In this document: piece by piece, positions 9,185-64,000 of the stretch
Position numbering within the stretch: position 1 is the stretch's first letter
Layout of the letters: every line of letters starts with the position of its first letter
From: an uncultured Bacteroidales bacterium
Lineage (GTDB): Bacteria; Bacteroidota; Bacteroidia; Bacteroidales; UBA3824
Assembly (NCBI GenBank): GCA_937877455.1
Contig: CALFIU010000100.1
Coordinates: 18,320 to 82,319 of the forward strand
DNA: 64,000 bases
Direction: 5' to 3'
Program-made: the position numbers and the translations under genes
The notes under the pieces: model-generated
Told to the model about the DNA's origin: nothing
What the model saw: the letters and a program-made list of their open reading frames with translations, nothing else
Database searches by the model: none

Positions 9185-9245
9185 AATCTTAAAGTTTTGA
9201 AGTTTATCGTACTCTCGCAGATTGTAATGTCTGCAAGAGTTTTGT

Positions 9246-9911
9246 TCAAGCGCACATTCTTTCGATGTTCTCGCGTTTCTTCGATACTTTGAAACGATAT
9301 ACCCAATGGTGGTCGGAATACTCGTTGTAGTATTCAATGCCGCGTTCTTTCATCAAACTTTCAATGTTGGCAATGTCTTTGTCGGCATGGAAGTTGTAGA
9401 AGAGCCAGACACCGATGCCGTAGGTTGTGGGATAAACTACAAAACGGTTGTTGTAGCCGCGTTCCTTGCAAAGTCTTTGCATAGCCATCGCAAACTTTCC
9501 GTATGTTCCGGCATAGACTTTCCGATCCTTCTCAACAAGTTTCTGGACGTACTCAACCGTGATTTCTTTCGACTTCACGTTTTCTTTCTTGACAAGAATT
9601 TGACCGCCATCGTGTTCCACATACAAAGTTGTGTACTCGTATGGGCTGCAATGCCTGTCAATGATTCGGTCGCAAAACTCTTTGATGTGCTTTTCGTACT
9701 CTGCAAGAGTTTCAAAGTTCCAACTCTGGTAAGAACCGTCATTCCTCGGAGGATTCAGTTCTTTGCAAGAACTCTTTGAATAGTCAAACCAATGTTTGTA
9801 CTCTTTTTCCCACTGAGCTTTCTTGAACTCTTCGTAAGTTTCTTCTGGAAACCAACGTACATTGATGCCCTGACTTTTCAGAGTCTCAATAGTTTCTTGA
9901 CTGATTCGCAT
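9246..9911 (-). CDS. hypothetical protein
   Basis: ORF track, 221 aa. Confidence 0.6.
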   Translation of the reverse strand: MRISQETIETLKSQGINVRWFPEETYEEFKKAQWEKEYKHWFDYSKSSCKELNPPRNDGSYQSWNFETLAEYEKHIKEFCDRIIDRHCSPYEYTTLYVEHDGGQILVKKENVKSKEITVEYVQKLVEKDRKVYAGTYGKFAMAMQRLCKERGYNNRFVVYPTTYGIGVWLFYNFHADKDIANIESLMKERGIEYYNEYSDHHWVYRFKVSKKRENIERMCA

Positions 9912-26411: not shown

Positions 26412-26526
26412 AAAATATTTACATTTTTGGCACAAAGGTAGTTCGCAAACGACTCTATAACATCTTTTTTGCTTGGAAAACAAAACATTTCCAAAATAAA
26501 ATATCTTTACAAGTTTGTTCTCAGTA

Positions 26527-26534
26527 TAATTTTG
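26527..26534 (+). promoter_or_regulatory. Bacteroidota-type -7 promoter box (TAnnTTTG) upstream of the head operon
   Basis: TAATTTTG lies 71 nt upstream of the ATG at 26605, in the TerL/scaffold divergent intergenic region. Confidence 0.35.
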
Positions 26535-26604
26535 CGGAAAAATCATTACAGGCACAGACAAAAAAGGTCTGTTCAACCAACACAAAAACTAAACATTTTA
26601 CGAC

Positions 26605-50300: not shown

Positions 50301-51164
50301 GCGCAAACTCTTAATCCTCATATTGCGCCAATAGTGACTATAGATAATGGTAGTGGCTACTACTATATTATCAATTGGGCGCAGGTTATTTTGCGTATCG
50401 TGTCGTATAAAGACAGCACGAAAACGACCTACATCAAAGCAACGACCGTCGCTTCTGCATCTTCATCGAATAGTACATCGGGATATGGAACTAAGAATGT
50501 GACGATGAGCAATAAATCTGTTGATTTGCCCGCAGGCTACCATGAAGTGCAAGTTTACTACTATGGGGTAGTGTATGCTGGTCAGGATTACACAACATCT
50601 GTAAGTTTACAATGGAATGTCACAAACGCCGTGTATGTATCGGATATTTACCTTTCCCGTTTGTTTGCCAACGGACTTGCATACGGCTCATCGCAAAACA
50701 ACTTCTTTGCGTTGATGAATATTGCGAGCAAGATAGTCATGCAAGCAGTTACGACGGACAGCAGTTTGAACAAACATGGGTTCTCATTGGACGCAGATGG
50801 TTTCAAGGTACAGAGAAAGAATGTCATAGGAAAAGTTTTCCCGACGATTTTCTACGGCATGGTAAGTTGGACTGCAAAGGAAACTTTCAGCATTACAAAG
50901 TATTATTCGTTTGACGGCTACACGCCAACACTTTCGAGAATTAACGAAGGCCGCGATGGAAAGATGAGACTGACATTCCCTGCTTCTTGGAGTAGCCTTA
51001 ATCTTGGTTTTTCAACGGCGATTATCAACCTCGTTGGCTACAACGATTCTGTCAGGAATGTTCACGTTACGAGTTTCACGAGCACGCAAATCACCGTTGA
51101 GGGCAATGATGATACGAGTAATAACTACACAAGTTTTGCAATAGAAATCAAATACATTGGCTAA
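41376..51164 (+). CDS. giant tail-associated (Tal-like) hub / fibre protein, 3262 aa
   Basis: Position after Dit. The N-terminus is typical of siphovirus Tal in length and placement. Contains an internal ~233-aa tandem duplication with a 74-bp identical core. Confidence 0.7.
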   Translation: MERVELNIYYRDGNETKLRCTVNKWKFQDTMMGEQFITLNITSEVPIDFAVGDFCTFRGETFTLNYVPSVTQKARTNERQDSYTYENVKFESFQEELTRCLMLDITPTTGDYVAALGTNYTGSSKFQLFCGETSANGSTLTAVCALAAKMQANLDRMFPTNGWKIFVDTTSTYLNSAGNAVLVTHTEDKVLTFDNTTVAQALTEVHNTFDLDYCIRGRSIYIGYNLKNLTSDNDNETFAFGYGKGYPTRDSQNKALFQIKRIANSQQKVVTRLRALGSTKNMPYRYYNSKYNLSQSLFPTNLQLPDTFASPATKAANNALRDNTLRAVKGDTNDAYIDKNDDAEHCAEGIREDSARWDGTNSDLPEIYPTIEEATYGELRSALVQDQDGNTGQSSFPNYGSSERIDKMLAIGYKDGNTLVDDANKGDGILPESGISSRGIPRSADIGLTSLSYNTRNYGDFSSRGGVYAGPEKTLFTIQGVSAGKYAMAPTIGAVLYGFSISCYRDGVSADVGYIITIKQKNLQTGATTTIATYTSDYQSISRGDGILEMELPEIPDVKNGANAKVSEVRVTALSDITVTFTPVMRNINVPSGFTDNFSLSYKVGNSRLDHTVTYDPEYNWIPLDDTDSVSETFHVFIQDMGFDLQACWTGETPVVAMKSGRCVGREFEIGENIEKVTHNGKKGYMLTLKRATDNTLNTYYPSATDPIAAGDYFVLLNISMPDVYVKMAEVRLLRAATEYLADNCETQFTYQPSIDDIYLQRNYDNMVKAGTPQSSIFWRLYAGLKFTFRGIPASEDSPAPLADITIEQVTISMGEGLTPKVELKLNDDVQQSTIQKLTTSVDRIYNGSIFSSGSGSGASGGAMSAALLSILQSEGEKLFLSKKHDDVAEGKITFNDVVTHNETLKAKKGLKVGNFNSRLLGSGALIDEEGNAEFESIYSRNFISTPEFRFNRIAVTDGEQWCTNGYGTIKEVEIIDETTGYITLKLEENDYASIAEGDICRGIYNDIAHEYETASLDDDTSLYAGENESNIEGFGFSSKEGFFTSYFWVRQMITNQKGECKFLYELRNTNTPHPCEFMKFAQYGSFTNSERRSSSYATSIGHYYEMVLDGVSTWKIKSANVVYRKGYLGNMTVTLRNGHEAELQGYGLYVQDNVYFGNAVVQLDPETIADLQDALNSYTVDFSGYVDVITVDDVGNVIGGLYAISGESPNEYRSYRIHSAITVRKSGELLTIAADNADAGNGTYKIYAQAHGCSFVIENSTIYITGIDNIKDGVAGSADDANFDFAAMRAMDSCSVDIIIDCEGKGSIIKNFPITIKHDAQPFVGADISNEFSSVSWNTKTQQYIGLPIVFDMKMWHNNEPLDIASVNDISVAPSITGMTVNKSIVTNANGTKVARISITSLPSDLSLVTDLNVTCVATYSGVQYERTLVHTINKTTDTNVYQLLPSVSEVGVVYNDNKQKVVNTNKVYCTVRCDSTDDKHYTVATSDYPTHGLFITSQTFTLNASNVEVGGTETAYSSLNGVTVSNDLTRIRFKLYKLRDTTLATLEALLAASNVIEVLDTEDVPVILDGLDGDNSIFVSLDNQNDAVMCIEDGTVIASTLPTAKARLMDGEDTVGRSVLGTTLAANKQTLGNWSLVCHGCTAEFVGWVADSDSNDWVQIRVTGVTDDVASVDVNCEYTKHGVAGNYVSILSVKKIYGLDKYELTFNPPIVSYNPNTDTYTPESFMVYVWKTTQDEDRHLMTSLPGNTANAVSETDGSIRLQYSVNKGVSWTTLYGYASGKSIGKTLFDIDGVESVDFRIQKYVAGESGGEWVLLDEEGVEIVGDGENTVQLTIDNGNDTVMCIEDGTVIASTLPIAQVYLYDGNDLMNSDLAASAWQALECVGCTAEWVSGYQSDGGKRFRVTAVTADVAKVTAKVSYKGNLYSVVHNIKKLYGLDKYEIITDPVSIAYNPNTGTHTPSSFNVYVYLTTQEEDRHLMATLPSHQSATDGDVRLQYSTDNGSNWNTLTGYSSGKTISSSSYNSVVSGAVLLRIQKYVAGESGGEWVLLDEEGVEITRNGQDGKGVEYIFITKNDWDGTDANKPTINDVASERQVDNYCPYTDAQHTDQWTDEPTGIGINQKYEFYAQRKKVNGVWQAFGDVKLWDRYALDGVTPYLIDLSNEQSFINCDEDGSVLSGATYETSNLMIFKGNSYAFTDFNIQITPTNIKCNGNSSAFALTENQKTTAQSDGYFTLTPSNISANSATITVRAILKTNSNIVLVAVYKVNKNIAGQNSVIYSLIPSLNVIHKDNTGTFLDTSLAIQVKKTVGTTTSILSTYKAIADEGLTIDYQNYVGTTDVVTSGATSTSAVSVLASNFVGGTNGNYGLLRLKNSGGTIVDTERINVVLDGDDGVTYEIRTTVDSVTIPEDATTAVLATIGTFYRKIGGNDPALYSCYGTVFRRYGTNYVRIGASTAKGTQYQIYSQTVSSDSSNANYADAIVFFMTEEALGGSAYANAAPTSYLAKKEILVKKYGDTGPEGDDAINYYLTSSINSIIRDQYGNYAGTARPVITAWKKVGDNAAVRLNDITTPSVAEGFTINAYEMDGSTVAYTNTSTTGLLTCAEPYSYVDRFEVELVKGGKTYATMSIPIITERQGEAGSDGVFPRDCGMFDAGIATNQTYGYAGYIYRKVGDVVIRDMVRYEIGGVMYGFMVKTKSQSDLITAAPTSVSGDSNWECTGIVRTIIANTIFGTNANIGGFMASNQRLVSSNVAYRVVYKGSYSSSTEYGEVVSSNIYQRQMVLDNGEYWVVRGGVTSFVNQSPSESSAYWRKATTKENAVEKTLNSYVDILSFSIDGILNEIEMIANDDSTWIVDKNGVQTLGFIDGKRVVFDPVSKEINIYNDLGVLATTLTGDTYDDLGAIFGNSTGNLSLNSYKSGSAQVSNGGSRAIDNQEYATLTMSTFSTASACRLTFNGTLSATGSRTQKSISGNSDAQTLNPHIAPIVTIDNGSGYYYIINWAQVILRIVSYKDSTKTTYIKATTVASASSSNSTSGYGTKNVTMSNKSVDLPAGYHEVQVYYYGVVYAGQDYTTSVSLQWNVTNAVYVSDIYLSRLFANGLAYGSSQNNFFALMNIASKIVMQAVTTDSSLNKHGFSLDADGFKVQRKNVIGKVFPTIFYGMVSWTAKETFSITKYYSFDGYTPTLSRINEGRDGKMRLTFPASWSSLNLGFSTAIINLVGYNDSVRNVHVTSFTSTQITVEGNDDTSNNYTSFAIEIKYIG
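46774..46847 (+). repeat. 74-bp exact direct repeat, copy 1; copy 2 is at 47473-47546
   Basis: TCCGCATTCAGAAGTACGTTGCAGGAGAGAGCGGTGGCGAGTGGGTATTGCTCGACGAGGAGGGAGTGGAGATT occurs twice, 699 nt (233 codons) apart and in frame. Confidence 0.9.
47473..47546 (+). repeat. 74-bp exact direct repeat, copy 2
   Basis: Identical to 46774-46847. Confidence 0.9.
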
Positions 51165-51166
51165 TT

Positions 51167-51553
51167 ATGAAAAAGATTAAATCACTAACAGAGAAACGGT
51201 TGATAATACCTGCGAAACTCAATGGGAAAGACGCAAACTTTCTCATTGACACAGGTGCTACCGTAGGACTCATATCAGACAGTATCAGGAAAAAGTACGG
51301 TCTGATAGTCGGTCGAAAGTTCCCCGGGTCTCTCGTCGGTGCGGGTGGAAGTTTCAGTGCCTACTACTGCAACACCCCTGCCACACTTGAGGACAAAACT
51401 CTTACACAGTTTCTTCTTGCAGACATCAGTCCTGTAACGGAAAGTATCAAGAAAGAAACAGGAATAGAAATTCATGGCATTATCTCGCTTCCGCAGATGG
51501 AGTTTGTCGGAATGCAGATTGACGCAAACGATCACCTCATAATCTTGGAGTAA
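51167..51553 (+). CDS. retropepsin-like (clan AA) aspartic protease, single domain
   Basis: NGKDANFLIDTGATVGLIS contains the D-T-G-A active-site motif. GAGGSF is flap-like. A late IHGIISLPQM corresponds to the GILG.dfl motif. At 128 aa it is the size of a monomer that must dimerise. Confidence 0.75.
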   Translation: MKKIKSLTEKRLIIPAKLNGKDANFLIDTGATVGLISDSIRKKYGLIVGRKFPGSLVGAGGSFSAYYCNTPATLEDKTLTQFLLADISPVTESIKKETGIEIHGIISLPQMEFVGMQIDANDHLIILE

Positions 51554-51554
51554 T

Positions 51555-52067
51555 ATGGCATTAACACAGGCAGAAGTTTTAGAATTGTTCCAACAGGTCG
51601 CCGCAATCAACAACAGCGACCAGTTGTTGATGATCAAGGCAAACCAGAACGGAAGTGTCAGTGCCGCAAAGATTACGGCAGAACTTCTACGCGCCTACCT
51701 CAACGCTGGCTTTGCCATTACGATAGACTCTGAAGGCTATCTTTGCATTGGTGGCGTAAGGACAGAAACGATGGCAGGTAGCAGTCAGATGGTGGCTCAA
51801 ACCGATACAACAGTCAGTATTCAGCCCAATGTTCTGAATGTCTGGGGTAATGTATCTTCTCTTGCTATCAGTCTTGTCGCAGGTGCGCAGGGTGGCGTGA
51901 ACGAGTATATGCTGGAGTTTACCGTTGCGTCCGACAACTTCACTCTTTCGCTCCCATCGAGTGTAAGATGGAGTGAAGAGCCGGAATGGGTGAACGGCAA
52001 TACCTATCAAGTAAGTATCGAGAACAACCTTGCACTTTACGCGGGATGGGAGGCCGCAAGCACATGA
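51555..52067 (+). CDS. hypothetical tail-associated protein
   Basis: ORF track, 170 aa, between the protease and the second fibre gene. Confidence 0.5.
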   Translation: MALTQAEVLELFQQVAAINNSDQLLMIKANQNGSVSAAKITAELLRAYLNAGFAITIDSEGYLCIGGVRTETMAGSSQMVAQTDTTVSIQPNVLNVWGNVSSLAISLVAGAQGGVNEYMLEFTVASDNFTLSLPSSVRWSEEPEWVNGNTYQVSIENNLALYAGWEAAST

Positions 52068-52201
52068 GTACATTCCGACGGCGAATAATGATGGCAATGA
52101 AAGAAGCCATTGAAAACATTAGAGCATGGTTTCGCAGTGATGGTTGGTATCGTAGCGAGCCTTGGTAGTAACACAAGAACACAAATACAAAATAAAGATT
52201 T

Positions 52202-55200
52202 ATGGCAAAGAAAGTAACGATTGACCAAGAGATTACAAGTCTCGACCAGCCTTGGGGCGGCACATACCAGAACGGGCAAGAGTGGGGCTTGAAGAAAGAA
52301 CGGGTCGAAGAGTTTCTGAAGGCGAAACTATCAGCCCATGAAACAAGTATCGCTGGCAAAGTTGCTGGCGTTATTGTGAACAACACAGAAGTTACGAAAG
52401 ACGCAAACGGCAAGGTGAATATCATTGTTCCTTCGGTTACAGCAGACGTTACCAATCCGAGTAACGCCAATGCCGCACAAGCAGGTGCAGTTGCAACGGA
52501 GATCAATGCTATCAACTCCAACCTCATTGCCGACATTCAGTTGGGCGAGACAAGTCAAGACGGCTCAATGATAGAACTAAACTTCTTCAATGCCGCAGGT
52601 GACAAACTTGACGATTTGACAGTTCTGATACCAGCAGCGCAAGAAGTCGGTGAAATCATCCAGCCTGTAATCACAACTGAACTTCTTTCAGCATCCCGTA
52701 TCAAACTTGGTGACAGCATCAGTCTCAGATGGGGCTATGACTGCCTACGAAAGTTTGAGGGTGTGAGTGAGCGCGTAAACTATCCGGCACAGACCGTAGC
52801 CGTGACAGTTAAGATAGGTACTACCACAGTCTATACTGAGACCTATGCACAAGTAGCCGTTGGAACAACAAACACTCTCACGCTTAGTCCTGAAATCATC
52901 AACCAGGCAGGTACGGTCAGCATCAGTGTCGTTGCTACTACGCCTATTGACGAAGAAATAAAGACAAGTCGCGGCTCAAAGAGTGTAACCGTCATAACGA
53001 TGGATCTTGCTACTACCTTTGACCCTGCGAGTCAGTTGGCGTTGAGCAACGGATATACCGACGGACAGACAATAGCCATCCCATATACCTATACCGTTCC
53101 AACGGGAACTACATTGAGAGTGTGGGTAGATGGTGTGTTGGACGCAACAGACAGCATCAGCGGCACAGGGCGAAACTACGTCTATCTGACAGCGAGCAAC
53201 CTAAGTGCCGGACGGCATAACGTACAGTTGATAGCCGAGAGTGCAGGTTTGTTGAGCAATGCCGTGAGCGTAGATGTACTGAAGGCAGGTGGCACAGCGG
53301 ACTATCTTGGTATTCGCATGAAGACCGATGTCAGTCAGTTGTCGAGTATGCCACTTCCATACGCCTACGGAGTTACAGCATTACCGTTGTCCGTTGCTCA
53401 GTTTGAGGAATTGACCATTGACATTGCAGCGTGGAACAACGACACATTGGCGAGTACGATTTTCATAAGCGTTGATGGTGTTGTGACCCAGACATTGACG
53501 GCAGACAGAACGTTGCAAACCATAAGCCAGCGTTTTGACACAGCGGGAAATCACACGATGGTTATAGCCTTGAACAACGACAATATTACAGCATACAGGA
53601 CATTCGGCGTTACCGTCAATGCCGCATCGGGTGTAACTGAGAGCGAAGCCGTAGGTTATCGCACAAAGTTGACTGCTACAGGGCGCAATAACGGCGAAGC
53701 CAACCCTGCTGATTGGGGTGGTATCACCACGTTCACGGGTGTTGACTGGCGAACCAACGGCTGGAACAGGGGTAGTGACGGCGTAGATACGCTGTTGCTT
53801 ACCAATGGCGCAAGGGCAAACATTGATGTCAAGCCATTCGTGCTTGATGCCAGTGACGGCGACTACTCCATCCAGAACGGAGGTATGACTCTTGAAATGG
53901 AAGTGATGGTCAGTCAGGTCATGGAGCGCGGTGCAACAGTTCTGAGCTGTCTTTGTGACAACGACGGCAACGGCTATCCGATGGGTGTCAAGATTACGAC
54001 CGAGGAGGCAGGTCTCTATTTTGGCGGTGTTGAGGAAATCACCACTGCTGAAGACCTTGTTGATGAGAACGGCAATTACATTGACTACAATGGAAACATT
54101 GTTGATGAAGCGAACAAAGTAAAGTTGAAGATTACCCGTCCTCATGGCGTTTCGATGAACATTGCCATTGACCGATGGGTTCACCTTTCATTTGTTGTTC
54201 AACCCGTGACGAATGGATATGGTCTGGCAATGCTCTTCATCAATGGTGTGTTGAGCCGTGCTAACCGCTATACAGGTTCGTTGAGACAGAACACACCTGT
54301 AGGAATCACCATTGATTCGGACAAAGCAGACGTAAGAATACGGTCGTTGCGTTACTACCGCACACCATTGAGTGCTGACGAAGTTATTGGCAACTGGATT
54401 ATCGACCGTCCAACGGCAGCTTTGATTCAGAGTGCGCACACCAACAATGCCGTCGGCGACATCAACAACACTACGGACAGTGATGGCAACATTGCCATAG
54501 ACCATGACACGTTGCTTAGTCGCGGTCGTGGTATTCTTACCATTATCCGAAGCGACGATAGCGGTTATGGACTTTCCGACCTCTTCACCTGTACGGACAA
54601 AAAGCAAAACTTCAAAGCGGACCTGGTGAAATGGGAGCCTCCACTTGATGCAAGCGGCAACCCCATCGGTGAGGGTTTTGAAGCAAGAAACGTCCGTGTC
54701 AGAATCCAAGGTACATCTTCTGTGAAGTACCCATACAAGAACTTCCGTATCTACCTCACTACACAGCAAGGTTCTGTTGCAAAAGTTCTTATCATCGGTG
54801 GCGTAGATGTAACTGAAACCGCAAAGGGCTATGCAATGCGCGGCAGCGGTAACAGCATTGAGCAAGCCGTTATCTGTGCGAAAACAGACTTTGTGGATTC
54901 TTCTTTGGTAATGAACACTGGTGGCGCACACCTGTTTAACGACATCATGCACGCTCTGCATCTTGATACGCCACCACAGGCTTACGATGCAAGAGTGAGA
55001 CAGGCTATTGACGGTCTTCCCTGCGACATCTATGCCGGAACCAATGAAAACGGCACTTTGCGATATTGCGGTCAGTTTGTCCTTAACAACGAGAAGTCGA
55101 AGTCTGGTAAGATCTTCGGCATGGAGGGCGTAAAAGACGGCAACGGAAATGAGGTTGATTTCCGCAGATACGAGAACCAAGGAACGGACGAAGAGCCAAA

Positions 55201-58200
55201 CATGGTTCTTGTAGGACCCGATACCAAGCCGTTTGCATTGGAGGCTTTGACAAACTCGTCGCCCATGACACTCTTCCAAAGTGCTGGTTCTGCCAACAGT
55301 CAGGCATTAGCAAACCAACTTGCGGCTGAATTTGACAATGGATTTGAGTTCAACCATCCAGAAGACGCTAAATGGGCGACAATCGGCACGGGTTCTTACT
55401 CTGATTGGGGCGGTGCGCAGACAGCCATCAAACGACTCTTTGGCTGGATCTATGACTGTGTGCCGTCTGCCATGCGCACTAACCCAGATTACGGCACAAC
55501 GGCTGGTTGGAGCGACGAGAGCAAAGCAAAATGGGTGTCGAGCAAGTTCAAGAGCGAGGCAAGCGACTATTTCAACGTCAACCACCTGTTGACCTATTAT
55601 CTTTTCACGGATTATTGGGCAAGCGTTGACCAGAGAGCCAAGAACATTTTGTGGCGTACATGGGATGGACTGATATGGTGGGCTACTTTCTACGACGGCG
55701 ACACAGCCATGTCAATCCGTAACGATGCCTTCATGGCTTATCTCTACAACGTCACCCGCGACACTTACGACACGGAACGCTCTAAGTACGCCTTCGAGGG
55801 TCACAATAGTTGGCTCTGGTGTCTCGTTCTCGCAAACTTCGAGGATGAGCTGAAGACTTGCGCCGCAAACTTGCGCAATCAGTTGACCACACAAGTCATG
55901 CTCAATGAGTTCAACACTGTCATGCAGGGCAACTGGAGTGAAAGGCAGTACAACAAAAGTGGTAAACTGAAGTACATCGACACCATTAACACGATGAACT
56001 ATGTCTATACTTTGACTGGTAATCGTGAGTTGCACCGCACACAGTTCTTGACCGACCGTGCAAGACTTTTAGATGCAAGGTATGGTGCAGGAAACTATAA
56101 CGGCGACGTAATCACGTTCACCGTCGTGCGCAATGCAAGCGATACGCCGTCGCACCTGACATTGAAGAGTGGCGACCTCTACTATTTCGGTTACAAACTT
56201 AACGGAATATGGTTGCAGGGACCATCGAGGGCTGCTGCTGGAGAAAGTTTGACGCTGAACTTCACCGATACGCTTGCGACCAACGACCCGCTTATGTTGG
56301 GTGGTGCAAGTTGTATCATCGAGCTTGACTTTACAGAGTTGGGCAGTCAGTTGAACGGTACGGTCAACCTCTCGCTATGCACAATGCTGTCAAAGTTAGT
56401 CATGCCTGCAACGAAAGGCGTAGCCAATGCCCCCCTAACGCTTGGCGACATAGCAAAGTTAGAGTATGTTGACATTACAGGACAAACAGCGGTTCATACT
56501 GGCACAACAGGCGTTTTCGACCTGTCAAAGCACACACGACTCACGATTTTGCTTGCAGGTGGAACAAGTTTGACGCAAATTAAACTTCCAGAAGGTTCAC
56601 CTCTTGATACTTTGGTCATGCCGTCTTCACTTCAAACTCTGACGTTGCGCTATCTGCCAAAGCTCAGACATAGCGGACTTACCTTGCAGGGAACAGCGAA
56701 CATCACTGCATTAAACTTTGCAGAATGTCCGTACCTGTCATGGCAGACGCTTATGACGATGTGTCCGAACATTGACCATGTGCGCATCGAGGGTATGTCC
56801 GGGCGTGTCCGCTCTTCAATGATACGGCCTTTCATGTCAGGCTATCGTGGTTTGACCGCACAAGGAACAGAGCAGACATATCCAGCACTTATCGGAAAAG
56901 TCCAACTCATAGACGTTGTGGACGATTTCGAGACGATGAGAAGTTTCTTTGCTCAGTGTGGACTCGAACTGGAGGCAGCACCATACTCTCAGTACATCTT
57001 CGACGATTCTGAAACTGATCCGTGTAACATCACGAATGAGGACAATCAGACTGGTTACGACTACTACGACGCTGAAAACGGCGAGACAACGGCACACTAC
57101 AATAACAATAGTTCATTGCTCAACCAGCATCCGTTGAACTATGTCGGTAGCGGTCATGTGAAACTTATCCGTGACAAGAGCCAGTTGTGTAGCGGTCGTG
57201 TCAACAACTCCACACACAAGATGAGAGTAACAAAGTTGTCGAAAAACAGCCTTACAGAGACAGCCGACGGAAACTCTTTCAATCCCACCGATCCAAACGG
57301 TGAAGGATATGACGTGTTCATGTATCTGCCACACTATTGGTACAAAGGTGTCAATGACTATAAGAACGCAAGAAAACATTTCTTCTGTTCTGCCAACACA
57401 CAATGTCCTGCAAGTACGGCAGCGAACACCATCCGTTACCAACTGTCAAACATCTTGTATGTCGCAGGAAAGGCTATCACCAACGAACTCTATTCTTCTG
57501 GTGTTTCTGTTGACGACCTTCTCACGACTGCCACAGAACTTTCAACGTACAGAGTTTCGGTAGAAGGAATGAAGCAGGTGAGATTCCCAGGAATCAATCA
57601 CAGTTACTTCTCACACGTCTTTGAAGACGAGAACGGCAACATCTTGTCAATCAACAATCTCTTGATGGCAGATGCAAGCGGCAACCCAGCAGACTTTATG
57701 AACGACGAGGGCGACTATGACTTCAGAACCGTTCCAGAGGGTGCAAAGTATTTCTATTTCTGTTGCAGAAACGCATCAGCCGCAAAGTCTGGTGTCGAAG
57801 TCATTGTCACTGACTCTTCAGAAGTTGAAGCCATTGAGCCGGATTGGGTGGAGCATAAGCCAGAGCTTATCGGTGTCTATCAGGGATATGCCGCTGGCAT
57901 CACCACTGGTGGAACACCCACAAGCGGACTTCGCTCTATCAGTGGAGAGACCGTATCGAGAGGTAGCGGAACATCTACACAGGTCGCTGCATGGACTTAC
58001 GACTCGGACGGCAATCCTACGGCACTCAATACCAGTACCAGAATCAACGGTACTGCACAGGACTTCTTCAACCTTGCAAGTGTGCGCACTGCACAGACGG
58101 AGGTACAGAACGGAGAATACAGCACCGTACCCTACGAGACCTCAAAAGACATGGCGAACCTGCTTATGGCATGGTTTGGTACACGCGACATTGAGACCAT

Positions 58201-58762
58201 CGTCGGACGTGGTTCAAGTGCTGGTGAAACGACTGGTGTCAGAAACAGCATTGCTTTCGGCGACTCCGATTATCCTGCACAGAACCAGCATAACAAGATG
58301 TGGGGTCTGGAATGTTGGACGGCTTCAACCTACGAATGGATGGATAAGGGCTGTCTCAACACGCCTACGTTTGCCGCCTTCAAGAAAAACAAACGTAACG
58401 CACCGACTGGAAGTAGCATTGATTACTACTACAATATCGTGCAACAGGACGGTAACGAGCGTAGGGTGAAGGTTGCTACCGCTAATCAGGCATCCAATGT
58501 CGCCCGTGTCCGTTTCGGCAGATATTGTGACATTGTTGTAAGTTCATACGCTGGTGACAGCAACTATGCAACAGGATATGCCGCATATCAATCATCAAAT
58601 GGTTCTACTGGTCGCGTCCTTGGTCGCTCGAGCTACAATGCGCTTGCGAGCGCGGGGGTCGCTTTCTCGTACACGAATAGCGCCTCCTCGAACTCGTACA
58701 CGAACGTCGGCGGTCGGCTCTGCTTCTTCGGAGAGATTGAGAACGAAGAAGACCTACTCTGA
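52202..58762 (+). CDS. 2186-aa tail fibre / receptor-binding protein; DGR target 1
   Basis: Domains read by eye, in order:
- ConA/LamG-like (WVHLSFVV...VRIRSLRYYRTPLSADEV)
- CotH-like (IQGTSSVKYPYKNFRIYL, AKTDFVDSSLVMNTGGAHLFNDIM, NILWRTWDGLIWWATFYDGDTAMSIRN)
- LRR-like tract
- C-terminal lectin-fold-type VR (GRVLGRSSYNALASAGVAFSYTNSASSNSYTNVGGRLCFFG). Confidence 0.85.
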   Translation: MAKKVTIDQEITSLDQPWGGTYQNGQEWGLKKERVEEFLKAKLSAHETSIAGKVAGVIVNNTEVTKDANGKVNIIVPSVTADVTNPSNANAAQAGAVATEINAINSNLIADIQLGETSQDGSMIELNFFNAAGDKLDDLTVLIPAAQEVGEIIQPVITTELLSASRIKLGDSISLRWGYDCLRKFEGVSERVNYPAQTVAVTVKIGTTTVYTETYAQVAVGTTNTLTLSPEIINQAGTVSISVVATTPIDEEIKTSRGSKSVTVITMDLATTFDPASQLALSNGYTDGQTIAIPYTYTVPTGTTLRVWVDGVLDATDSISGTGRNYVYLTASNLSAGRHNVQLIAESAGLLSNAVSVDVLKAGGTADYLGIRMKTDVSQLSSMPLPYAYGVTALPLSVAQFEELTIDIAAWNNDTLASTIFISVDGVVTQTLTADRTLQTISQRFDTAGNHTMVIALNNDNITAYRTFGVTVNAASGVTESEAVGYRTKLTATGRNNGEANPADWGGITTFTGVDWRTNGWNRGSDGVDTLLLTNGARANIDVKPFVLDASDGDYSIQNGGMTLEMEVMVSQVMERGATVLSCLCDNDGNGYPMGVKITTEEAGLYFGGVEEITTAEDLVDENGNYIDYNGNIVDEANKVKLKITRPHGVSMNIAIDRWVHLSFVVQPVTNGYGLAMLFINGVLSRANRYTGSLRQNTPVGITIDSDKADVRIRSLRYYRTPLSADEVIGNWIIDRPTAALIQSAHTNNAVGDINNTTDSDGNIAIDHDTLLSRGRGILTIIRSDDSGYGLSDLFTCTDKKQNFKADLVKWEPPLDASGNPIGEGFEARNVRVRIQGTSSVKYPYKNFRIYLTTQQGSVAKVLIIGGVDVTETAKGYAMRGSGNSIEQAVICAKTDFVDSSLVMNTGGAHLFNDIMHALHLDTPPQAYDARVRQAIDGLPCDIYAGTNENGTLRYCGQFVLNNEKSKSGKIFGMEGVKDGNGNEVDFRRYENQGTDEEPNMVLVGPDTKPFALEALTNSSPMTLFQSAGSANSQALANQLAAEFDNGFEFNHPEDAKWATIGTGSYSDWGGAQTAIKRLFGWIYDCVPSAMRTNPDYGTTAGWSDESKAKWVSSKFKSEASDYFNVNHLLTYYLFTDYWASVDQRAKNILWRTWDGLIWWATFYDGDTAMSIRNDAFMAYLYNVTRDTYDTERSKYAFEGHNSWLWCLVLANFEDELKTCAANLRNQLTTQVMLNEFNTVMQGNWSERQYNKSGKLKYIDTINTMNYVYTLTGNRELHRTQFLTDRARLLDARYGAGNYNGDVITFTVVRNASDTPSHLTLKSGDLYYFGYKLNGIWLQGPSRAAAGESLTLNFTDTLATNDPLMLGGASCIIELDFTELGSQLNGTVNLSLCTMLSKLVMPATKGVANAPLTLGDIAKLEYVDITGQTAVHTGTTGVFDLSKHTRLTILLAGGTSLTQIKLPEGSPLDTLVMPSSLQTLTLRYLPKLRHSGLTLQGTANITALNFAECPYLSWQTLMTMCPNIDHVRIEGMSGRVRSSMIRPFMSGYRGLTAQGTEQTYPALIGKVQLIDVVDDFETMRSFFAQCGLELEAAPYSQYIFDDSETDPCNITNEDNQTGYDYYDAENGETTAHYNNNSSLLNQHPLNYVGSGHVKLIRDKSQLCSGRVNNSTHKMRVTKLSKNSLTETADGNSFNPTDPNGEGYDVFMYLPHYWYKGVNDYKNARKHFFCSANTQCPASTAANTIRYQLSNILYVAGKAITNELYSSGVSVDDLLTTATELSTYRVSVEGMKQVRFPGINHSYFSHVFEDENGNILSINNLLMADASGNPADFMNDEGDYDFRTVPEGAKYFYFCCRNASAAKSGVEVIVTDSSEVEAIEPDWVEHKPELIGVYQGYAAGITTGGTPTSGLRSISGETVSRGSGTSTQVAAWTYDSDGNPTALNTSTRINGTAQDFFNLASVRTAQTEVQNGEYSTVPYETSKDMANLLMAWFGTRDIETIVGRGSSAGETTGVRNSIAFGDSDYPAQNQHNKMWGLECWTASTYEWMDKGCLNTPTFAAFKKNKRNAPTGSSIDYYYNIVQQDGNERRVKVATANQASNVARVRFGRYCDIVVSSYAGDSNYATGYAAYQSSNGSTGRVLGRSSYNALASAGVAFSYTNSASSNSYTNVGGRLCFFGEIENEEDLL
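58609..58730 (+). repeat. DGR variable repeat 1 (VR1)
   Basis: 122 nt aligned without gaps to the TR. 14 mismatches, all at TR adenines. Confidence 0.9.
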
Positions 58763-58872
58763 AAAGCGTAGAGCGGAGGCGGCTTGAAAAAGTCGCCCCT
58801 GCAAAACGACAAACGAACAAACGTAAAACGAAATAAGAAAAACGTAATGAGAAAAAAGGTAGAAAATCCCAT

Positions 58873-58994
58873 TGGTCGCGTCCTTGGTCGCTCGAACAAC
58901 AATGCGAATGCGAACGCGGGGGTCGCTTACTCGAACACGAATAACGCCTCCTCGAACTCGAACACGAACAACGGCGGTCGGCTCTGCTAAATCG
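58873..58994 (+). repeat. DGR template repeat (TR)
   Basis: Non-coding copy between the target gene and the RT. 27 adenines lie in the core, grouped as 12 AAY codons plus TAC and 2 ACG. The flanks are adenine-free. Confidence 0.9.
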
Positions 58995-59260
58995 AAACTC
59001 TGCTTCTGGGATAATGCTCACGGGTTGGGCGACATTCAGAAGATAATCGTTGCTACGGCGAACACTTACGGGATAAGTGATGGCTGACAACGAGGGATTT
59101 GAGCCTCGGCAACAGCAATACTTTCCAACCCGCAAAGAATTGGAAAGAATTGGAAAGCCGGAACATCACAGGGTGTGGTCGATTATGGTCAAGTAGTTTC
59201 TGCAAAGATGTCGAAAGCCCTATGACCACAAGAAACGAAGAAGAAAATAAATATCGACAA

Positions 59261-60571
59261 ATGTCAAAGAGATATGGCTTCCTGATACCGAGAATAGTTG
59301 AACGCTCTAACATGGATAGGGCGTTTGATGAGGTCGTAGATCAACTTCCAGAGCCTCGCAGAACCCACTATCGCAAAAGGCGAGAAGAGATTCTTGAGCG
59401 TACTACGAAGGCGATTTCCGACGGAAGTTTCCGTGTCAACCACTATCGAGAAATGTGGGTTACGGACGGTTCCAAGATACGCAAAGTGCAAAGTCCGTGC
59501 GTAGAACACAGAATCGGTTGTAATGCCATCATGCGCATTGTGGAAGATGTGCTGTACCCAAGTGTCATTAAAACTTCTGCCGCAAGTATTCCTGGACGCG
59601 GTATGCACAGGCTGTTTGTAAAGATGCGGCATGATATTGAGAATGACCGTGAGGGTACGGCATACTTCTACAAGTGCGATATCAGAAAGTTCTTTGAAAG
59701 CATTGACCAAGACCTGATGTGGGAATTTGTCAAGGATAAAATCAAAGATCCGATACTTTTGCCGATACTCCACAACTTTGTGACGATGATGGAGAAAGGA
59801 CTCTCCATCGGTTTGCGCTCGTCACAATGTTATGGTAATATCTTCCTTAGCGGCATTGACCATTACTTCAAGGACGTTCTTGGTGTAAGGTACTACTACC
59901 GCTATTGTGACGATATTGTAATTCTTGCATCGAGTAAGCGCAAACTTTGGCTGCTCCGTGACATCATGCACGAACAGGCTGCTGAGCTTAAACTTGAAGT
60001 CAAGCCGAATGAATGTGTCAGACCCATTGAGGAGGGTATAGACTTTCTCGGCTTTGTATATGACGGAAAGAAAGGAAAACTGCGCAAGCGCACCAAGCAG
60101 AAGGCCGCAAGGAAACTTCACAAGGTCAAGAGCCGTAAACGCAGACAGCAGATCATAGGAAGTCTGAAAGGCATGGCGAAATGGGGTGACTGCAAACACT
60201 TGTATAAAACTTTAACAGGTAAGAATATGGAATCATTTAGCGAAAAAGTTAAGCAGATGAAAAAAAACGGTGTTGAATACACTGGTAAGGATGGTAAGCG
60301 TATGCTGACGGGTCAAGAGGTATCTCTGAGGACGTTGGTTAATATGCACATAGTAGTTCTGGACTTTGAGCCAGACGTTCCCACAAAGAACGGCAATCGT
60401 TATGTCGTTCAATTCCAGAGAGACGATGGCACTATTGGTAAGTATCTTACGAATGATTCTGAACAAAAGTTCTGGTTGGATGAGTTTCGTAAGGCGAACA
60501 ACATTCCGTTTGAGTGCAAGATTACACCTCAGTATTTCGGACAGGGCAAGGTACGTTATCAATTCACTTAA
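59261..60571 (+). CDS. DGR reverse transcriptase with a C-terminal extension of about 114 aa
   Basis: YYYRYCDDIVIL (YxDD), the DGR-type motif SIGLRSSQ ([ILV]GxxxSQ), and an N-terminus MSKRYGFLIPRI typical of DGR RTs. The track start at 59099 is a TTG inside the spacer. An alternative ATG lies at 59222. Confidence 0.9.
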   Translation: MSKRYGFLIPRIVERSNMDRAFDEVVDQLPEPRRTHYRKRREEILERTTKAISDGSFRVNHYREMWVTDGSKIRKVQSPCVEHRIGCNAIMRIVEDVLYPSVIKTSAASIPGRGMHRLFVKMRHDIENDREGTAYFYKCDIRKFFESIDQDLMWEFVKDKIKDPILLPILHNFVTMMEKGLSIGLRSSQCYGNIFLSGIDHYFKDVLGVRYYYRYCDDIVILASSKRKLWLLRDIMHEQAAELKLEVKPNECVRPIEEGIDFLGFVYDGKKGKLRKRTKQKAARKLHKVKSRKRRQQIIGSLKGMAKWGDCKHLYKTLTGKNMESFSEKVKQMKKNGVEYTGKDGKRMLTGQEVSLRTLVNMHIVVLDFEPDVPTKNGNRYVVQFQRDDGTIGKYLTNDSEQKFWLDEFRKANNIPFECKITPQYFGQGKVRYQFT

Positions 60572-60584
60572 AACACTGTGCGTT

Positions 60585-61085
60585 ATGGAAAAAGTTTATG
60601 GTACTGAAGAAAGGCATGACAGCCTTATCATTCACAAGACAAAGAGAGCCGTCTTAATCTATGGCTATGGTGAAGAGAACGGCATGGGGTATGATTTCCG
60701 ACATACTTTTGACCATGAGCCTACGGCAATGGAAGTGTTGGAGGTTATCACAAACCATGTGAACGAACTTACGGATCAAAAGATTCTGTCCGGCTATCAG
60801 TGGAATGGCTACAATGTGTGGCTATCGACTGAAAATCAGTTCAACTTCAAGGCAGCATACGATGTTGCGGTACAGACAGGAGGAGCAACGCTACCAATCA
60901 AGTTCAAACTCGGAGAGACTGAAGGCGAACCGAACTACTTTGTCTTTGAAGACATGGCTACATTCACAGACTTCTACACAAATGCTCTCGCCTACATCAT
61001 AGAAGTTCTTAATGTAGGCTGGGTCGAAAAGGACTCCGCGAAAGAATGGGTGCAAACATTAGGACTTAAAAACGGCGAAGCATGA
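60585..61085 (+). CDS. hypothetical protein
   Basis: Track ORF trimmed to MEKVYGTEERHD (ATG 60585). Acidic, and not Avd-like in composition. Confidence 0.55.
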   Translation: MEKVYGTEERHDSLIIHKTKRAVLIYGYGEENGMGYDFRHTFDHEPTAMEVLEVITNHVNELTDQKILSGYQWNGYNVWLSTENQFNFKAAYDVAVQTGGATLPIKFKLGETEGEPNYFVFEDMATFTDFYTNALAYIIEVLNVGWVEKDSAKEWVQTLGLKNGEA

Positions 61086-61241
61086 AAACTTATCATACAC
61101 CGAACATTGCCTATATGAGCATAGGAAGTGACCCGCTACTTGATAGTATGTCGGGGCTTCCATTGCGAGGTGACAGCATTACAGACCCGACATTTGAATG
61201 TTCTGGTGACAACGATTCTCAACTTAGTAACTCTGTTTGGA

Positions 61242-61721
61242 ATGACGATTATGAATAGCCTTGTATTTATAGCAATGTTTGCCATTGTCGCCTATGTTGT
61301 GGCCATGGTAATAAAAAATAAGGAAATACCCGAAAGCATTTCTTCGACGGTGTTCAATCTTGACAAGAAATGGAAGTGGGTGTTTTCCGCTGTGATGTGG
61401 ATAGTTGGCTTTCTCCTTATGCCACCTCTGATGGAAAAGGTGTCTGATTCGACACGGTTCATTGCTTTCTTCATGGTTGCAGGAATACTTTTCGTCGGAG
61501 CATCGCCCTTGGTTGCAAAGGAAAAGAACACTCTTCACTATGTGTGCGCTGCCGTTGCAGGAATAGCATCACAGTTGTTGGTAGCCCTTAACCAACCGCT
61601 GTTGCTACTGATATGGTTCTTGTATATCGGCTATACTCTCGCAGCAAAGGATGGCAGTAGAAACTTTTTCTGGGTGGAAGTTTCGTGTATGCTGTCTGTC
61701 TTTGTTTATTGTTTAACGTAA
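61242..61721 (+). CDS. multi-pass membrane protein, part of the lysis-cassette neighbourhood
   Basis: Track ORF trimmed to MTIMNSLVF. Four to five hydrophobic segments. Confidence 0.55.
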   Translation: MTIMNSLVFIAMFAIVAYVVAMVIKNKEIPESISSTVFNLDKKWKWVFSAVMWIVGFLLMPPLMEKVSDSTRFIAFFMVAGILFVGASPLVAKEKNTLHYVCAAVAGIASQLLVALNQPLLLLIWFLYIGYTLAAKDGSRNFFWVEVSCMLSVFVYCLT

Positions 61722-61737
61722 AAACTTTTTTAATGGT

Positions 61738-62277
61738 ATGAAATTAGACAACACTATCACACAGACAACTTCTGGTCTCTTCACTCCTGTAGCCATCGGG
61801 TTCATCCAGAATAGCATTCAGATGATGATACCCTGGCTTATTGTTATGTTTGTCGTTATCCTCACAGACCTCATATCTGGCATAAGGAAGTCCATCAAAC
61901 TCGGTGTGGAAGTTTCGCCATCTACAGCCTTTAGGGAAACTATGGGTAAGATGGTGACTTACTTCAGTTGGGTTATCATGGTGTGCCTTTTAGATGTTGC
62001 GATGGGTGGAGAAACCACCGCCGCAAAATGGGGTTGCTTGCTTGTCATAGCGATTGAGGGTGGAAGCATAGTCAGCAATATACTAAAGCCATACGGTGTG
62101 GAGATTTCTCTGAAAGGGATTTTGCGTGTAATCTTCATGCGTTCGCCTCTGAATGCGTCGCAGGAAGAGGCTGAACAGGTCATACGAGACAAGAAGATTG
62201 AGCAAATTCGTAAGAAAGAACATGAAAAGTGGAACCACAAAAGCAAAAAAGGACATGGTACTAAAGAAAGGAAGTAG
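61738..62277 (+). CDS. holin (phage_holin_4-like)
   Basis: TM segments. ILTDLISGIRKS and VIAIEGGSIVSNILKPYG resemble the D..TG and E..SI.EN holin motifs. It lies directly upstream of the endolysin. Confidence 0.65.
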   Translation: MKLDNTITQTTSGLFTPVAIGFIQNSIQMMIPWLIVMFVVILTDLISGIRKSIKLGVEVSPSTAFRETMGKMVTYFSWVIMVCLLDVAMGGETTAAKWGCLLVIAIEGGSIVSNILKPYGVEISLKGILRVIFMRSPLNASQEEAEQVIRDKKIEQIRKKEHEKWNHKSKKGHGTKERK

Positions 62278-62938
62278 AGGCGATGAGGTCAGGGCTTTGC
62301 AACAAGCCCTGCACCTCTATGTTGATGGTATATTCGGTATTCTAACCGAGGAAGCCGTCAAGGAATATCAGAAGGCGCATGGTCTTGTTGCCGATGGAAT
62401 AGTTGGCGATAAGACGTGGGCGAAACTCTTTCCATCTGGAAAGACATCTGTCACGTTGCAAAAAAGCAAGAGGGTGATCAATGAGATTATCATACATTGT
62501 ACTGCTACTCCAGAAGGTCAGGATATGACTGTTGAACAGATTACGGCAAGTCACAAGAAACGTGGTTTTACCACTATCGGCTATCACTACGTTATCTATC
62601 GTGACGGATCTATCCATAAGGGTAGGGATGTCAATGTCAGTGGAGCCCATTGCACAAATCACAATACTCACTCAATCGGAGTAAGTTATGTTGGCGGTCT
62701 TGAGAATATCCCAGGTGTCGCCTACAACAAACTTCCGATAAAGGACACTCGCACAGCAAAGCAAAAAGCGGCTTTGCTGAAACTATTGAAAGACTTGAAG
62801 GTTCTTTATCCGAAAGCAAAGATTATCGGACATCGTGATACTTCGCCAGACAAGAACGGAAACGGAATCATAGAGCCTTTTGAGTGGATAAAGGGTTGTC
62901 CTTGTTTCGACGCAAAGACGGAGTACAAAAACATCTGA
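62222..62938 (+). CDS. endolysin: N-acetylmuramoyl-L-alanine amidase (Amidase_2/PGRP) with an N-terminal PG_binding_1 domain
   Basis: GSRGDEVRALQQAL...VDGIFGILTEEAVKEYQKAHGLVADGIVGDKTWAKL, then IIIHCTAT...IGYHYVIYRDGSIHKGRD...GAHCTNHNTHSIGVSYVGG. An alternative start is at 62255. Confidence 0.9.
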   Translation: MKSGTTKAKKDMVLKKGSRGDEVRALQQALHLYVDGIFGILTEEAVKEYQKAHGLVADGIVGDKTWAKLFPSGKTSVTLQKSKRVINEIIIHCTATPEGQDMTVEQITASHKKRGFTTIGYHYVIYRDGSIHKGRDVNVSGAHCTNHNTHSIGVSYVGGLENIPGVAYNKLPIKDTRTAKQKAALLKLLKDLKVLYPKAKIIGHRDTSPDKNGNGIIEPFEWIKGCPCFDAKTEYKNI

Positions 62939-62941
62939 GTT

Positions 62942-63502
62942 ATGGAAAAGAAAATCTTATCTTACATCGTTCTTTCGCTGCTTATCTTGCTTGGCGTTTC
63001 TTTGTTCTGGAACTACAAGCAGTACAGAGATATGAACGATCGTCCGAAAGTTGTGAGAGATAGCGTAACCGTTATTCAGTACGTAGAGAAGAAAGACTCT
63101 ATGCCCAATGCGAAGACGGAAACTGTTGTCGGTAGTATAAAAGTTCCGATACCAAAGAAGAAAAAAGATTTGGAACTTCCACCTACCGTTCAAGATTCTT
63201 TGCCAAATCTTTCACATACCGTTCCTAACGAAGAAATGGAAGATAGTCTTGAATTGGAGATTACGCAGAAAGTCTATTCTGATAGTACATATACGGCTTA
63301 TGTAAGCGGTTATAGACCGAACTTGGATAGTATCTTTGTAAGGCAGAAAGTTATTACAAATACGATTCACGAAACAATAACCATCGAAAAAAAGAAGTTC
63401 CGGCGATGGAATGTCGGAATCATTGGCGGTTATGGGTATGGCTTTCAATCAAAGACTTTTGAACCGTTTATCGGTGTTGGCGTGTCCGTAAGTCTGTTTT
63501 AA
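62942..63502 (+). CDS. membrane-anchored protein after the endolysin; possible spanin-like lysis accessory
   Basis: N-terminal TM helix ILSYIVLSLLILLGVSLFW. Gly/aromatic-rich C-terminal tail. Position only. Confidence 0.35.
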   Translation: MEKKILSYIVLSLLILLGVSLFWNYKQYRDMNDRPKVVRDSVTVIQYVEKKDSMPNAKTETVVGSIKVPIPKKKKDLELPPTVQDSLPNLSHTVPNEEMEDSLELEITQKVYSDSTYTAYVSGYRPNLDSIFVRQKVITNTIHETITIEKKKFRRWNVGIIGGYGYGFQSKTFEPFIGVGVSVSLF

Positions 63503-63517
63503 TCTTATTTGCAGAGA

Positions 63518-63558
63518 AAATCCTCCGACGGTGTAATTGTTTGACCGTCAGAGGATTT
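63518..63558. terminator. hairpin terminator between convergent genes
   Basis: AAATCCTCCGACGG ... CCGTCAGAGGATTT, 13 of 14 bp paired, followed by CTTTCTTC. Confidence 0.6.
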
Positions 63559-63610
63559 CTTTCTTCGCGGGAAATCAAGGGAAATTATAGGGGAATTTCC
63601 CCTATTTGAT

Positions 63611-64000
63611 TCAGTCTTCTTCTTTGAGGAAAGCAAAGAACTGACCCCACAATTTTGCGAAACGCTCTCCGCACTGCGCAGCCAGCTCTCGCGTTTTGAA
63701 GCAGAGCCGACCGCCGCTGCACGCGCTCGAGAACGAGGAGGCGTAATACGCGTACGAGCAAGCGACCCCCGCGTACGCATTCGCAACGTAGTACGAGCGA
63801 CCAAGGACGCGACTTCTTTCTTCTTCATCCATCCTGTCTATCTCTTCTTTGGTATAGAGCAAGAACCAAGGATAGTAGCGGTATTCGTCTTCTGTGAATA
63901 ACGGGAACTGGTCAAGTTCATCAACCGTCAGTTCGTTGTATGCAGCACAGACGATACGCAGTTTCATCATGGCTTGCACATCAAGAGGCAGTTCGCCGAT
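63611..64000 (-). CDS. DGR target 2; the 5' end may run off the window
   Basis: The frame is open to position 64000. In-window starts are GTG 63979 and ATG 63970. The C-terminal region RVLGRSYYVANAYAGVACSYAYYASSFSSACSGGRLCF is encoded by VR2. Confidence 0.7.
   Translation of the reverse strand: MGELPLDVQAMMKLRIVCAAYNELTVDELDQFPLFTEDEYRYYPWFLLYTKEEIDRMDEEERSRVLGRSYYVANAYAGVACSYAYYASSFSSACSGGRLCFKTRELAAQCGERFAKLWGQFFAFLKEED
63698..63813 (-). repeat. DGR variable repeat 2 (VR2)
   Basis: The reverse complement aligns without gaps to TR 58875-58990. 19 mismatches (17 in the core), all at TR adenines. Confidence 0.9.

Follow-up and report, generated by a model that had tools for sequence, protein, structure and literature searches.

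A stretch of 64,000 nucleotides (nt) from contig CALFIU010000100.1 of an uncultured Bacteroidales bacterium (assembly GCA_937877455.1; referred to here as the window, whose own numbering is used throughout) carries a diversity-generating retroelement (DGR), a system in which a reverse transcriptase (RT) transfers a template repeat (TR) into a variable repeat (VR) with adenine-specific mutation. Our analysis makes us highly confident that this is an intact and recently active DGR of the Hankyphage lineage, residing in a large siphovirus-like phage of ruminant-gut Bacteroidaceae/Prevotella. A preliminary description of the same DNA had already proposed a DGR, and this call is supported by adenine-specific mismatches between the repeats, by a Brt-like RT with the signature motif and by variation between genomes. 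The span then assigned to the element, 58609–60571, does contain the first variable repeat (VR1), TR and RT, but a second target repeat (VR2) lies outside it. The principal components are as follows.

52202–58762, plus strand: target gene 1, 2186 amino acids (aa), the final large gene in the tail module, matching phrog_14959 over residues 1011–2181.
58609–58724, plus strand: VR1, a 116-nt variable repeat with a mutable span at 58631–58707, corresponding to residues 2136–2175 of target 1.
58873–58988, plus strand: TR, a 116-nt template repeat with 27 adenines within 58895–58971.
59261–60571, plus strand: the DGR RT, 436 aa, with an RT core (59261–60226) and a C-terminal domain predicted to resemble an oligonucleotide/oligosaccharide-binding (OB) fold (60227–60568).
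63700–63813, minus strand: VR2, an inverted 114-nt variable repeat 4.7 kb downstream of TR.
63611–64000, minus strand: target gene 2, ~198 aa, of which 129 aa lie inside the window, with a frame open to 64000, matching phrog_11581 positions 80–194 of 200.

VR1 and TR had been described as ungapped 122-nt repeats (58609–58730 and 58873–58994) that differ at 14 positions, every one of them an adenine in TR. A repeat of this length is present, and the count was reproduced over it; the homologous core, however, is just 116 nt long, and the mutagenic mismatches number 11. All 11 of these differences fall at TR adenines (27 adenines among 114 positions; Fisher p = 2e-8), and an alignment in which mismatches were counted by class revealed no core mismatch outside them. 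This pattern is far beyond chance. The codon changes cited earlier as examples (AAC to AGC, AAC to TAC, AAT to CTT, TAC to TTC and AAC to GTC) are all right and lie in the frame of open reading frame (ORF) 52202–58762. Within the core, the 27 TR adenines are indeed limited to 12 AAY codons (Y being a pyrimidine), one TAC and two ACG codons, where they occupy codon positions 1 and 2 only, and the sequence bears out the adenine-free flanks on both sides. The arithmetic by which 15^12 gives 1.3e14 variants is also right; once the TAC and the two ACG codons are added, with four outcomes each, the number rises to 8.3e15.

The preliminary description had noted two motifs in the adjacent ORF, YCDD and IGLRSSQ, and both are seen there, as RYCDDIV and SIGLRSSQ. 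The ORF opens with a TTG at 59099, but this is not where the RT starts. The alignment with Brt, the RT of Bordetella phage BPP-1, begins at MSKRYG (MGKRHR in Brt), and the true start is therefore the ATG at 59261. The RT is colinear with Brt residues 1–316 (E = 3e-26) and matches both RVT_1 (1.3e-13) and phrog_1423 (2.8e-89). Its top match among solved structures, 8ub7, was confirmed as BPP-1 Brt (E = 4e-22; a group II intron RT scores 8e-9). It retains the DGR RT signature [I/V/L]GxxxSQ (PMC7826257) as IGLRSSQ, the YxDD motif as YCDD, and counterparts of Arg74 and Ile181, two Brt residues with a demonstrated role in promoting adenine misincorporation (PMC7826257).

These features bear on an alternative in which an ordinary duplication happens to lie beside an unrelated RT, belonging to a group II intron, a retron or a defence system, and the adenine bias is a coincidence. 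The RT does have sub-threshold matches to the NCBIfam models for group II intron, Drt3a and retron RTs, as is expected for any RT of the superfamily, but these scores are far below the cut-offs, and Brt is ahead by 13 orders of magnitude. Moreover, the IGxxxSQ motif is DGR-specific, an RNA motif named RT-3 (described below) sits at the DGR position, and searches with Rfam found no retron RNA family and, over 57000–64000, no group II intron RNA. The mismatch statistics across our comparisons (p = 2e-8 to 2e-21) leave a coincidental bias with almost no probability, and we count this explanation as refuted.

Judged from its repeats, the DGR has two targets in opposite orientation. VR2 differs from TR at 17 positions over 114 nt, all 17 of which are TR adenines, and it is located 26 aa before the C-terminus of the ~198-aa protein. 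Complete 198-aa orthologues of target 2 were identified in two related loci, L002 (10269–10865) and L084, and an inverted second VR is found at the equivalent place in L004, L005, L006 and L096 (related loci are given L numbers here). Of the 68 related loci in which a TR/VR pair could be detected, nine have a second VR. It could nevertheless be argued that VR1 is the sole live target, diversification of VR2 having ceased and left either a relic copy or a paralogous repeat. In favour of this are the position of VR2 on the opposite strand at a distance of 4.7 kb, the truncation of its gene by the window end, and the lack of a GC-rich hairpin with a GRNA loop such as follows VR1. Set against this are the restriction of VR2 differences to TR adenines; VR2 alleles of the window, L092, L094 and L002 that differ almost only at TR-adenine positions and track a T/G polymorphism of TR (see below); the intact ~198-aa ORF in L002 and L084, together with the layout kept in the four loci just named; and the finding that an inverted VR still supports homing in BPP-1 (VRInv construct, PMC3240598). 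A relic VR2 is thus quite unlikely, and we regard both repeats as targets of the DGR.

We identified 328 RT relatives in IMG/VR, the nearest being 72–82% identical. Over the 68 loci with a TR/VR pair, 908 of 991 TR/VR mismatches fall at TR adenines. In 14 orthologues of the VR1 domain, which are otherwise conserved, residues encoded by AAY codons have an entropy of 2.33 bits, compared with 0.26 for other VR residues and 0.81 for the 100 residues upstream (p = 6e-8). A metagenome scan with the adenine-free 5' anchor recovered contig JAEEGL012842104.1 and further VR2 alleles; four loci from scans with 20-mer anchors (L003, L089, L091 and L093) were dropped as chance matches. JAEEGL012842104.1 is 92.6% identical to the window over 57809–61280 (~3.5 kb), yet its TR is identical at 119 of 120 positions. 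The preliminary description had proposed looking for polymorphism confined to TR-adenine positions in population reads. Run between related genomes, on six VR alleles with near-identical TR (from the window, JAEEGL012842104.1, L094 and L002), this comparison revealed variation at 27 of 27 TR-adenine positions versus 5 of 87 others (p = 1.8e-21). In addition, TR position 58978 is a T in the window and a G in JAEEGL012842104.1, with the cognate base present in both VRs of each phage. Repeated copying from TR into both targets predicts exactly such a mirrored T/G difference.

One close relative has a different appearance. L086 (5037–6345) and L087 (656–1943) are identical and come from independent datasets (Logan SRR9008937 and JGI 3300028914, respectively). 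Their RT is broken over three frames (160 + 157 + 114 aa), and three of 19 core TR/VR mismatches are non-adenine. The picture suggests a DGR of this clade that is falling into decay.

The existence of a relative that seems to have decayed gives some substance to the view that the window, too, holds a fossil DGR, once active, which would explain the VR diversity, and no longer working in this genome. We consider this very improbable. The RT ORF of the window is unbroken and retains every catalytic and signature motif; there is not a single non-adenine difference among TR, VR1 and VR2 (114–116 nt), despite flanks that have diverged by 7–13% from relatives; and the polymorphism at 58978 was copied to both VRs after divergence from JAEEGL012842104.1. 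These observations favour the intact, recently active DGR over a fossil.

Two further features close to VR1 may give the transfer its direction.

58709–58724, plus strand: the adenine-free, GC-rich 3' segment of VR1, GGCGGTCGGCTCTGCT, shared with TR.
58778–58797, plus strand: a hairpin or cruciform, GGCGGCTT-GAAA-AAGTCGCC, just past the stop codon of target 1.

The GGCGGTCGGCTCTGCT segment probably plays a role like that of the initiation of mutagenic homing (IMH) site. Immediately after it, TR reads AAA at 58989–58991 where VR1 reads TCT, a fixed boundary difference: CTGCT-AAATC was found in all seven TRs compared (the window and L004–L009), CTGCT-TCTTCGG in every VR1 examined (seven, then more) and CTGCT-TCAAAA in all VR2. 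Because the boundary is fixed across relatives, the differences at 58989–58991 are not the product of adenine mutagenesis; the fixed TR/VR boundary may instead correspond to what separates IMH* from IMH in BPP-1 (PMC5758913). A TAA at 58989–58991 closes TR in the VR reading frame. We also noted a TTG-initiated ORF of 68 aa (58784–58990, plus strand) that spans the A-rich VR1–TR spacer and the whole of TR in the VR frame, and ends on a TAA kept in all relatives, exactly at the homology boundary. Its end point is notable; the ORF itself is probably non-coding.

The hairpin, as folded in the window and in L004–L007, lies 54 nt past VR1 and has an 8-bp stem, including one G·T pair, closed by a GAAA loop. 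When an alignment of nine relatives was folded, 10 hairpin pairs were recovered, four of them with compensatory changes, and a GC-rich stem with a 4-nt loop (GAAA, GCAA, CGAA or GCAT) is kept in relatives though the stem sequences differ. No T-run follows the hairpin at 58778–58797. Homing in BPP-1 needs a hairpin with a 7–10-bp GC-rich stem and a 4-nt GRNA loop, placed 4–34 nt from VR (PMC3240598), and the stem and loop found here fit this published consensus. The hairpin is a candidate target-recognition or homing signal for VR1.

The interval between TR and the RT, and the gene that follows the RT, were also found to be constant features of this group of elements.

59045–59229, plus strand: an RT-3 RNA (Rfam RF03068), which fills the TR–RT spacer and matches the full model.
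60585–61085, plus strand: a DUF4376-family ORF of 166 aa, acidic, directly after the RT, matching phrog_19239 (9e-41).

The RT-3 match scores 71.5 bits (gathering score 40.5), begins 57 nt past TR and ends 32 nt before the RT start. RT-3 was found between TR and the RT in all 25 related loci scanned, including that of Hankyphage (146.6 bits). Of the RT-associated motifs RT-1 to RT-19 reported by Weinberg et al. (PMC5737381), RT-10 was placed in the TR–RT spacer of BPP-1, and that others might serve other DGRs was offered only as speculation; in the searchable literature we found no paper tying RT-3 to DGRs. RT-3 presumably forms the 3' part of the DGR RNA, where it may act as a priming or RT-binding spacer.

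Orthologues of the post-RT ORF are present in all 14 loci inspected, Hankyphage included (158–168 aa, isoelectric point (pI) 4.5–5.1; orthologues are from L001, L004–L012, L025, L028, L084 and L086), and 11 of 13 orthologues have a DUF4376 match. Such constant linkage to the RT hints at a possible role as a DGR accessory or in fibre assembly. The 166-aa protein was also considered as a candidate for Avd, the accessory protein of BPP-1, and rejected: it is acidic (the pI of Avd is 9.55), belongs to DUF4376 and has an hhalign probability of 0.5%. Inside this ORF, at 60943–60986 (plus strand), there is an Rfam match to the Caulobacter small RNA CC0196, which at 24.6 bits against a threshold of 35 we regard as chance.

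The ~114 C-terminal residues of the RT have no counterpart in Brt. An AlphaFold model of this domain (pLDDT, the predicted local confidence score, 83) has the topology β1-β2-β3-α-β4-β5, and Foldseek matched it to other phage RT C-termini (TM 0.74) and then to many phage single-stranded DNA-binding proteins (SSBs; TM 0.45–0.56). Against solved structures it retrieved PrgE, RPA70N and other OB folds, weakly (best E = 8e-3). We therefore propose, with moderate confidence, that the extension is an SSB-like OB domain; no literature on an OB fold attached to DGR RTs was found in the searchable literature. The possibility that this domain is a separate gene was rejected, since no viral-contig relative has a break in the ORF: it is continuous in the window, in Hankyphage and in 10 other such relatives inspected. 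All nine database homologues of the C-terminal segment are 114-aa proteins, an artefact that arises where a contig is truncated or the RT carries a frameshift; the L084 contig begins 23 nt upstream of the ORF, and the RT of L086 and L087 is frameshifted.

Target 1 had been labelled a fibre gene. VR1, TR and RT do lie at the 3' end of this 2186-aa gene, but the label derives from its place in the gene order and its homology with the Hankyphage target. The gene is downstream of the tape measure (33050–40006) and of a 3262-aa protein (41376–51164), and upstream of the lysis genes. Its C-terminal 686 aa are 27–34% identical to the targets of Bacteroides phages BS-TP4, BKO1-TP3 and BT-TP2, and the Hankyphage target aligns with residues 6–410 only of this 686-aa query. 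By analogy, it is plausible that target 1 is a receptor-binding tail fibre.

Together, these data suggest the following mechanism. The RT (59261–60571) would bind an RNA made of TR (58873–58988) and the structured RT-3 spacer (59045–59229), and would copy TR into cDNA with misincorporation opposite the 27 template adenines. This cDNA would then replace the homologous stretch in each of the two recipient genes: VR1, where the 2186-aa tail-module protein has its C-terminus, and VR2, in the gene for the ~198-aa protein, which lies past the lysis cassette on the other strand. Directionality would come from the fixed difference that follows the adenine-free GC-rich 3' block (CTGCT-AAATC in TR, CTGCT-TC in VR), to which, in the case of VR1, the downstream GC-rich hairpin with its GAAA loop probably adds. 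Since 12 AAY codons (15 residues each) and three further codons (four residues each) would be rewritten, each VR could encode up to about 8e15 peptides, with the scaffold residues remaining constant. In the absence of Avd, the fused OB-like domain may take over its nucleic-acid-binding role.

Several observations weigh against this account of an intact, recently active, two-target DGR. Searches of the ORFs in 51167–63502 with Pfam and NCBIfam found no Avd, HRDC, MSL or CH1 family; an accessory gene is present in about 71% of DGRs and missing in 29% (PMC5758913). The 54 nt that separate the hairpin from VR1 exceed the published 4–34 nt, and a strict search recovered perfect GC-rich hairpins with a 4-nt loop in just 13 of 67 wider relatives. 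This search accepts perfect pairs only, and overlooks the window's own hairpin owing to its G·T pair. Downstream of the VR2 stop codon there is only an AT-rich palindrome (63587–63605), no GC-rich hairpin with a GRNA loop, and the VR2 gene is incomplete, being cut by the window end. For target 1, the AlphaFold 2 model of the 259-aa VR1 domain (14-sequence alignment) has a pLDDT of 34 and is unusable, and no C-type lectin domain was found by Pfam (at E up to 10), by a PDB profile search or by hhalign against Mtd, the BPP-1 target protein. Finally, current activity in this genome is likely on evidence that is between-genome and not within-population.

More tentatively, and with somewhat less than even confidence in the whole, these elements can be read jointly as Avd-independent mutagenic retrohoming in a Hankyphage-type lineage. 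Here, RT-3 would both position and prime the RT, the OB domain would replace the Avd pentamer of BPP-1, and the same machinery would serve both opposed targets, the ~198-aa one being a free-standing protein near the lysis genes with its own biology.

The remainder of the window is consistent with a tailed phage genome. It encodes, among others, a primase, a portal, a large terminase, a major head protein, a 2318-aa tape measure and the 3262-aa tail-module protein, followed beyond the DGR target by a holin, an amidase endolysin and a DUF6808 protein; the window contains no tRNAs. The large terminase ORF (23661–26585, minus strand) is unusually long at 974 aa: residues ~54–350 match PHROGs families of DnaC-like helicase loaders and helicase P-loops, and the main terminase match covers 473–750. 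Between the 3262-aa and 2186-aa genes, at 51167–51553 (plus strand), lies a 128-aa ORF with matches to aspartyl protease domains of the retroviral type (PF13650, 5.5e-9; PF13975, 4.9e-7). The nearest genomic relative, with an RT that is 86% identical, is a 182-kb contig in a Bacteroidaceae metagenome-assembled genome (MAG) from red-deer gut; other relatives come from MAGs of ruminant Bacteroidaceae and Prevotellaceae and from the chromosome of Prevotella lacticifex JCM 34664. A megablast of 58000–61000 against GenBank phages gave no match.

The surroundings of target 2 have features of their own. The DUF6808 gene (62942–63502, plus strand) converges on the VR2 gene, with a 108-nt gap between them. 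Within this gap, the palindrome ATAGGGGAAATTCCCCTAT (63587–63605) is perfect and AT-rich, is kept in a weaker form in L002, and is probably a bidirectional terminator. In L004, VR2 (about 14358–14449, minus strand) has an in-frame internal duplication of ~30 nt, in which the GCCTCCTCG...ACG block is repeated, and is longer than TR. Just upstream of the VR2-gene orthologue in L002, in a region beyond the window end, are two tandem paralogous genes of ~115 aa (9053–9412 and 9409–9753), with direct repeats of 74 nt and 66 nt at their starts and ends.

BPP-1 had initially been cited as the example of such a system. Adenine-specific retrohoming is shared between the two, but the closest model is the DGR lineage of Hankyphage, with no Avd, an RT-3 RNA and an extended RT. 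Hankyphage (Bacteroides phage p00, BK010646) has a DGR that was described by Benler et al. in 2018 (PMC6199706) and experimentally shown to diversify its target (PMC12135933). Its components come in the same order: a target gene of >2000 aa with a 116-nt C-terminal VR, a 116-nt TR, RT-3, an RT of ~435 aa with a C-terminal extension, and a DUF4376 ORF. The two RTs are 43% identical over 97% of their length, the target proteins are homologous, and both hosts are Bacteroidales. From the loci studied here, we define a Hankyphage-type lineage by RT-3 in the TR–RT gap, an extended RT of ~435 aa and a DUF4376 ORF next to it, all of which are present in the window element. There are also clear differences. 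Hankyphage, a transposable phage of the Mu-like type, has a genome of 43 kb and a single annotated VR, whereas the window phage exceeds 64 kb, with related contigs reaching 80–105 kb; the window element has a different TR sequence, an extra inverted target and no megablast-level match. Hankyphage also has a small ORF between VR and TR, unlike the 148-nt VR1–TR gap of the window, which holds none such, and a small RT-proximal ORF in Hankyphage has been proposed to be Avd-like.

The likeness to BPP-1, with its order mtd-avd-TR-brt, extends to adenine-specific transfer from TR to a VR in the C-terminus of a tail protein, a colinear RT, and an adenine-free GC-rich 3' block that is followed by a fixed difference between TR and VR. 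The candidate hairpin after VR1, GC-rich and with a GAAA loop, resembles that of BPP-1 but lies farther from VR than the published range. Both have an RNA motif in the TR–RT spacer, namely RT-10 in BPP-1 (PMC5737381) and RT-3 in the window. Unlike BPP-1, the window has no Avd that we could find, an additional RT domain of ~114 aa that is predicted to be OB-like, two targets in place of one, and no detectable similarity to Mtd.

In the survey of Wu et al. 2018 (PMC5758913), two targets were found in 13% of DGRs and a C-terminal RT extension of up to about 150 aa in about 20%, and the avd-less Lineage 3/3A was confined to Bacteroides and relatives. The window element fits the Avd-less, multi-target and extended-RT architectures catalogued there, Architecture A among them, and its RT may belong to Lineage 3A. 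In that survey most RT extensions had no recognisable motif, whereas the extension in the window is predicted to adopt an SSB-like OB fold.

As a DGR, the window element is ordinary: many phages are known to diversify their tail proteins in this way, and activity has been demonstrated in the nearest lineage. Its interest lies in comparison. With it, the range of the Hankyphage-type cassette, which takes in the 43-kb Mu-like prophages of Bacteroides, reaches far larger phages of ruminant-gut Bacteroidaceae/Prevotella. It also shows a conserved two-target layout in which the small second target offers a compact natural scaffold with about 8e15 possible variants. It also provides three leads on how DGRs may operate without Avd: in these loci RT-3 always lies between TR and the RT, the RT always carries the predicted SSB-like OB domain, and the DUF4376 ORF always comes next.

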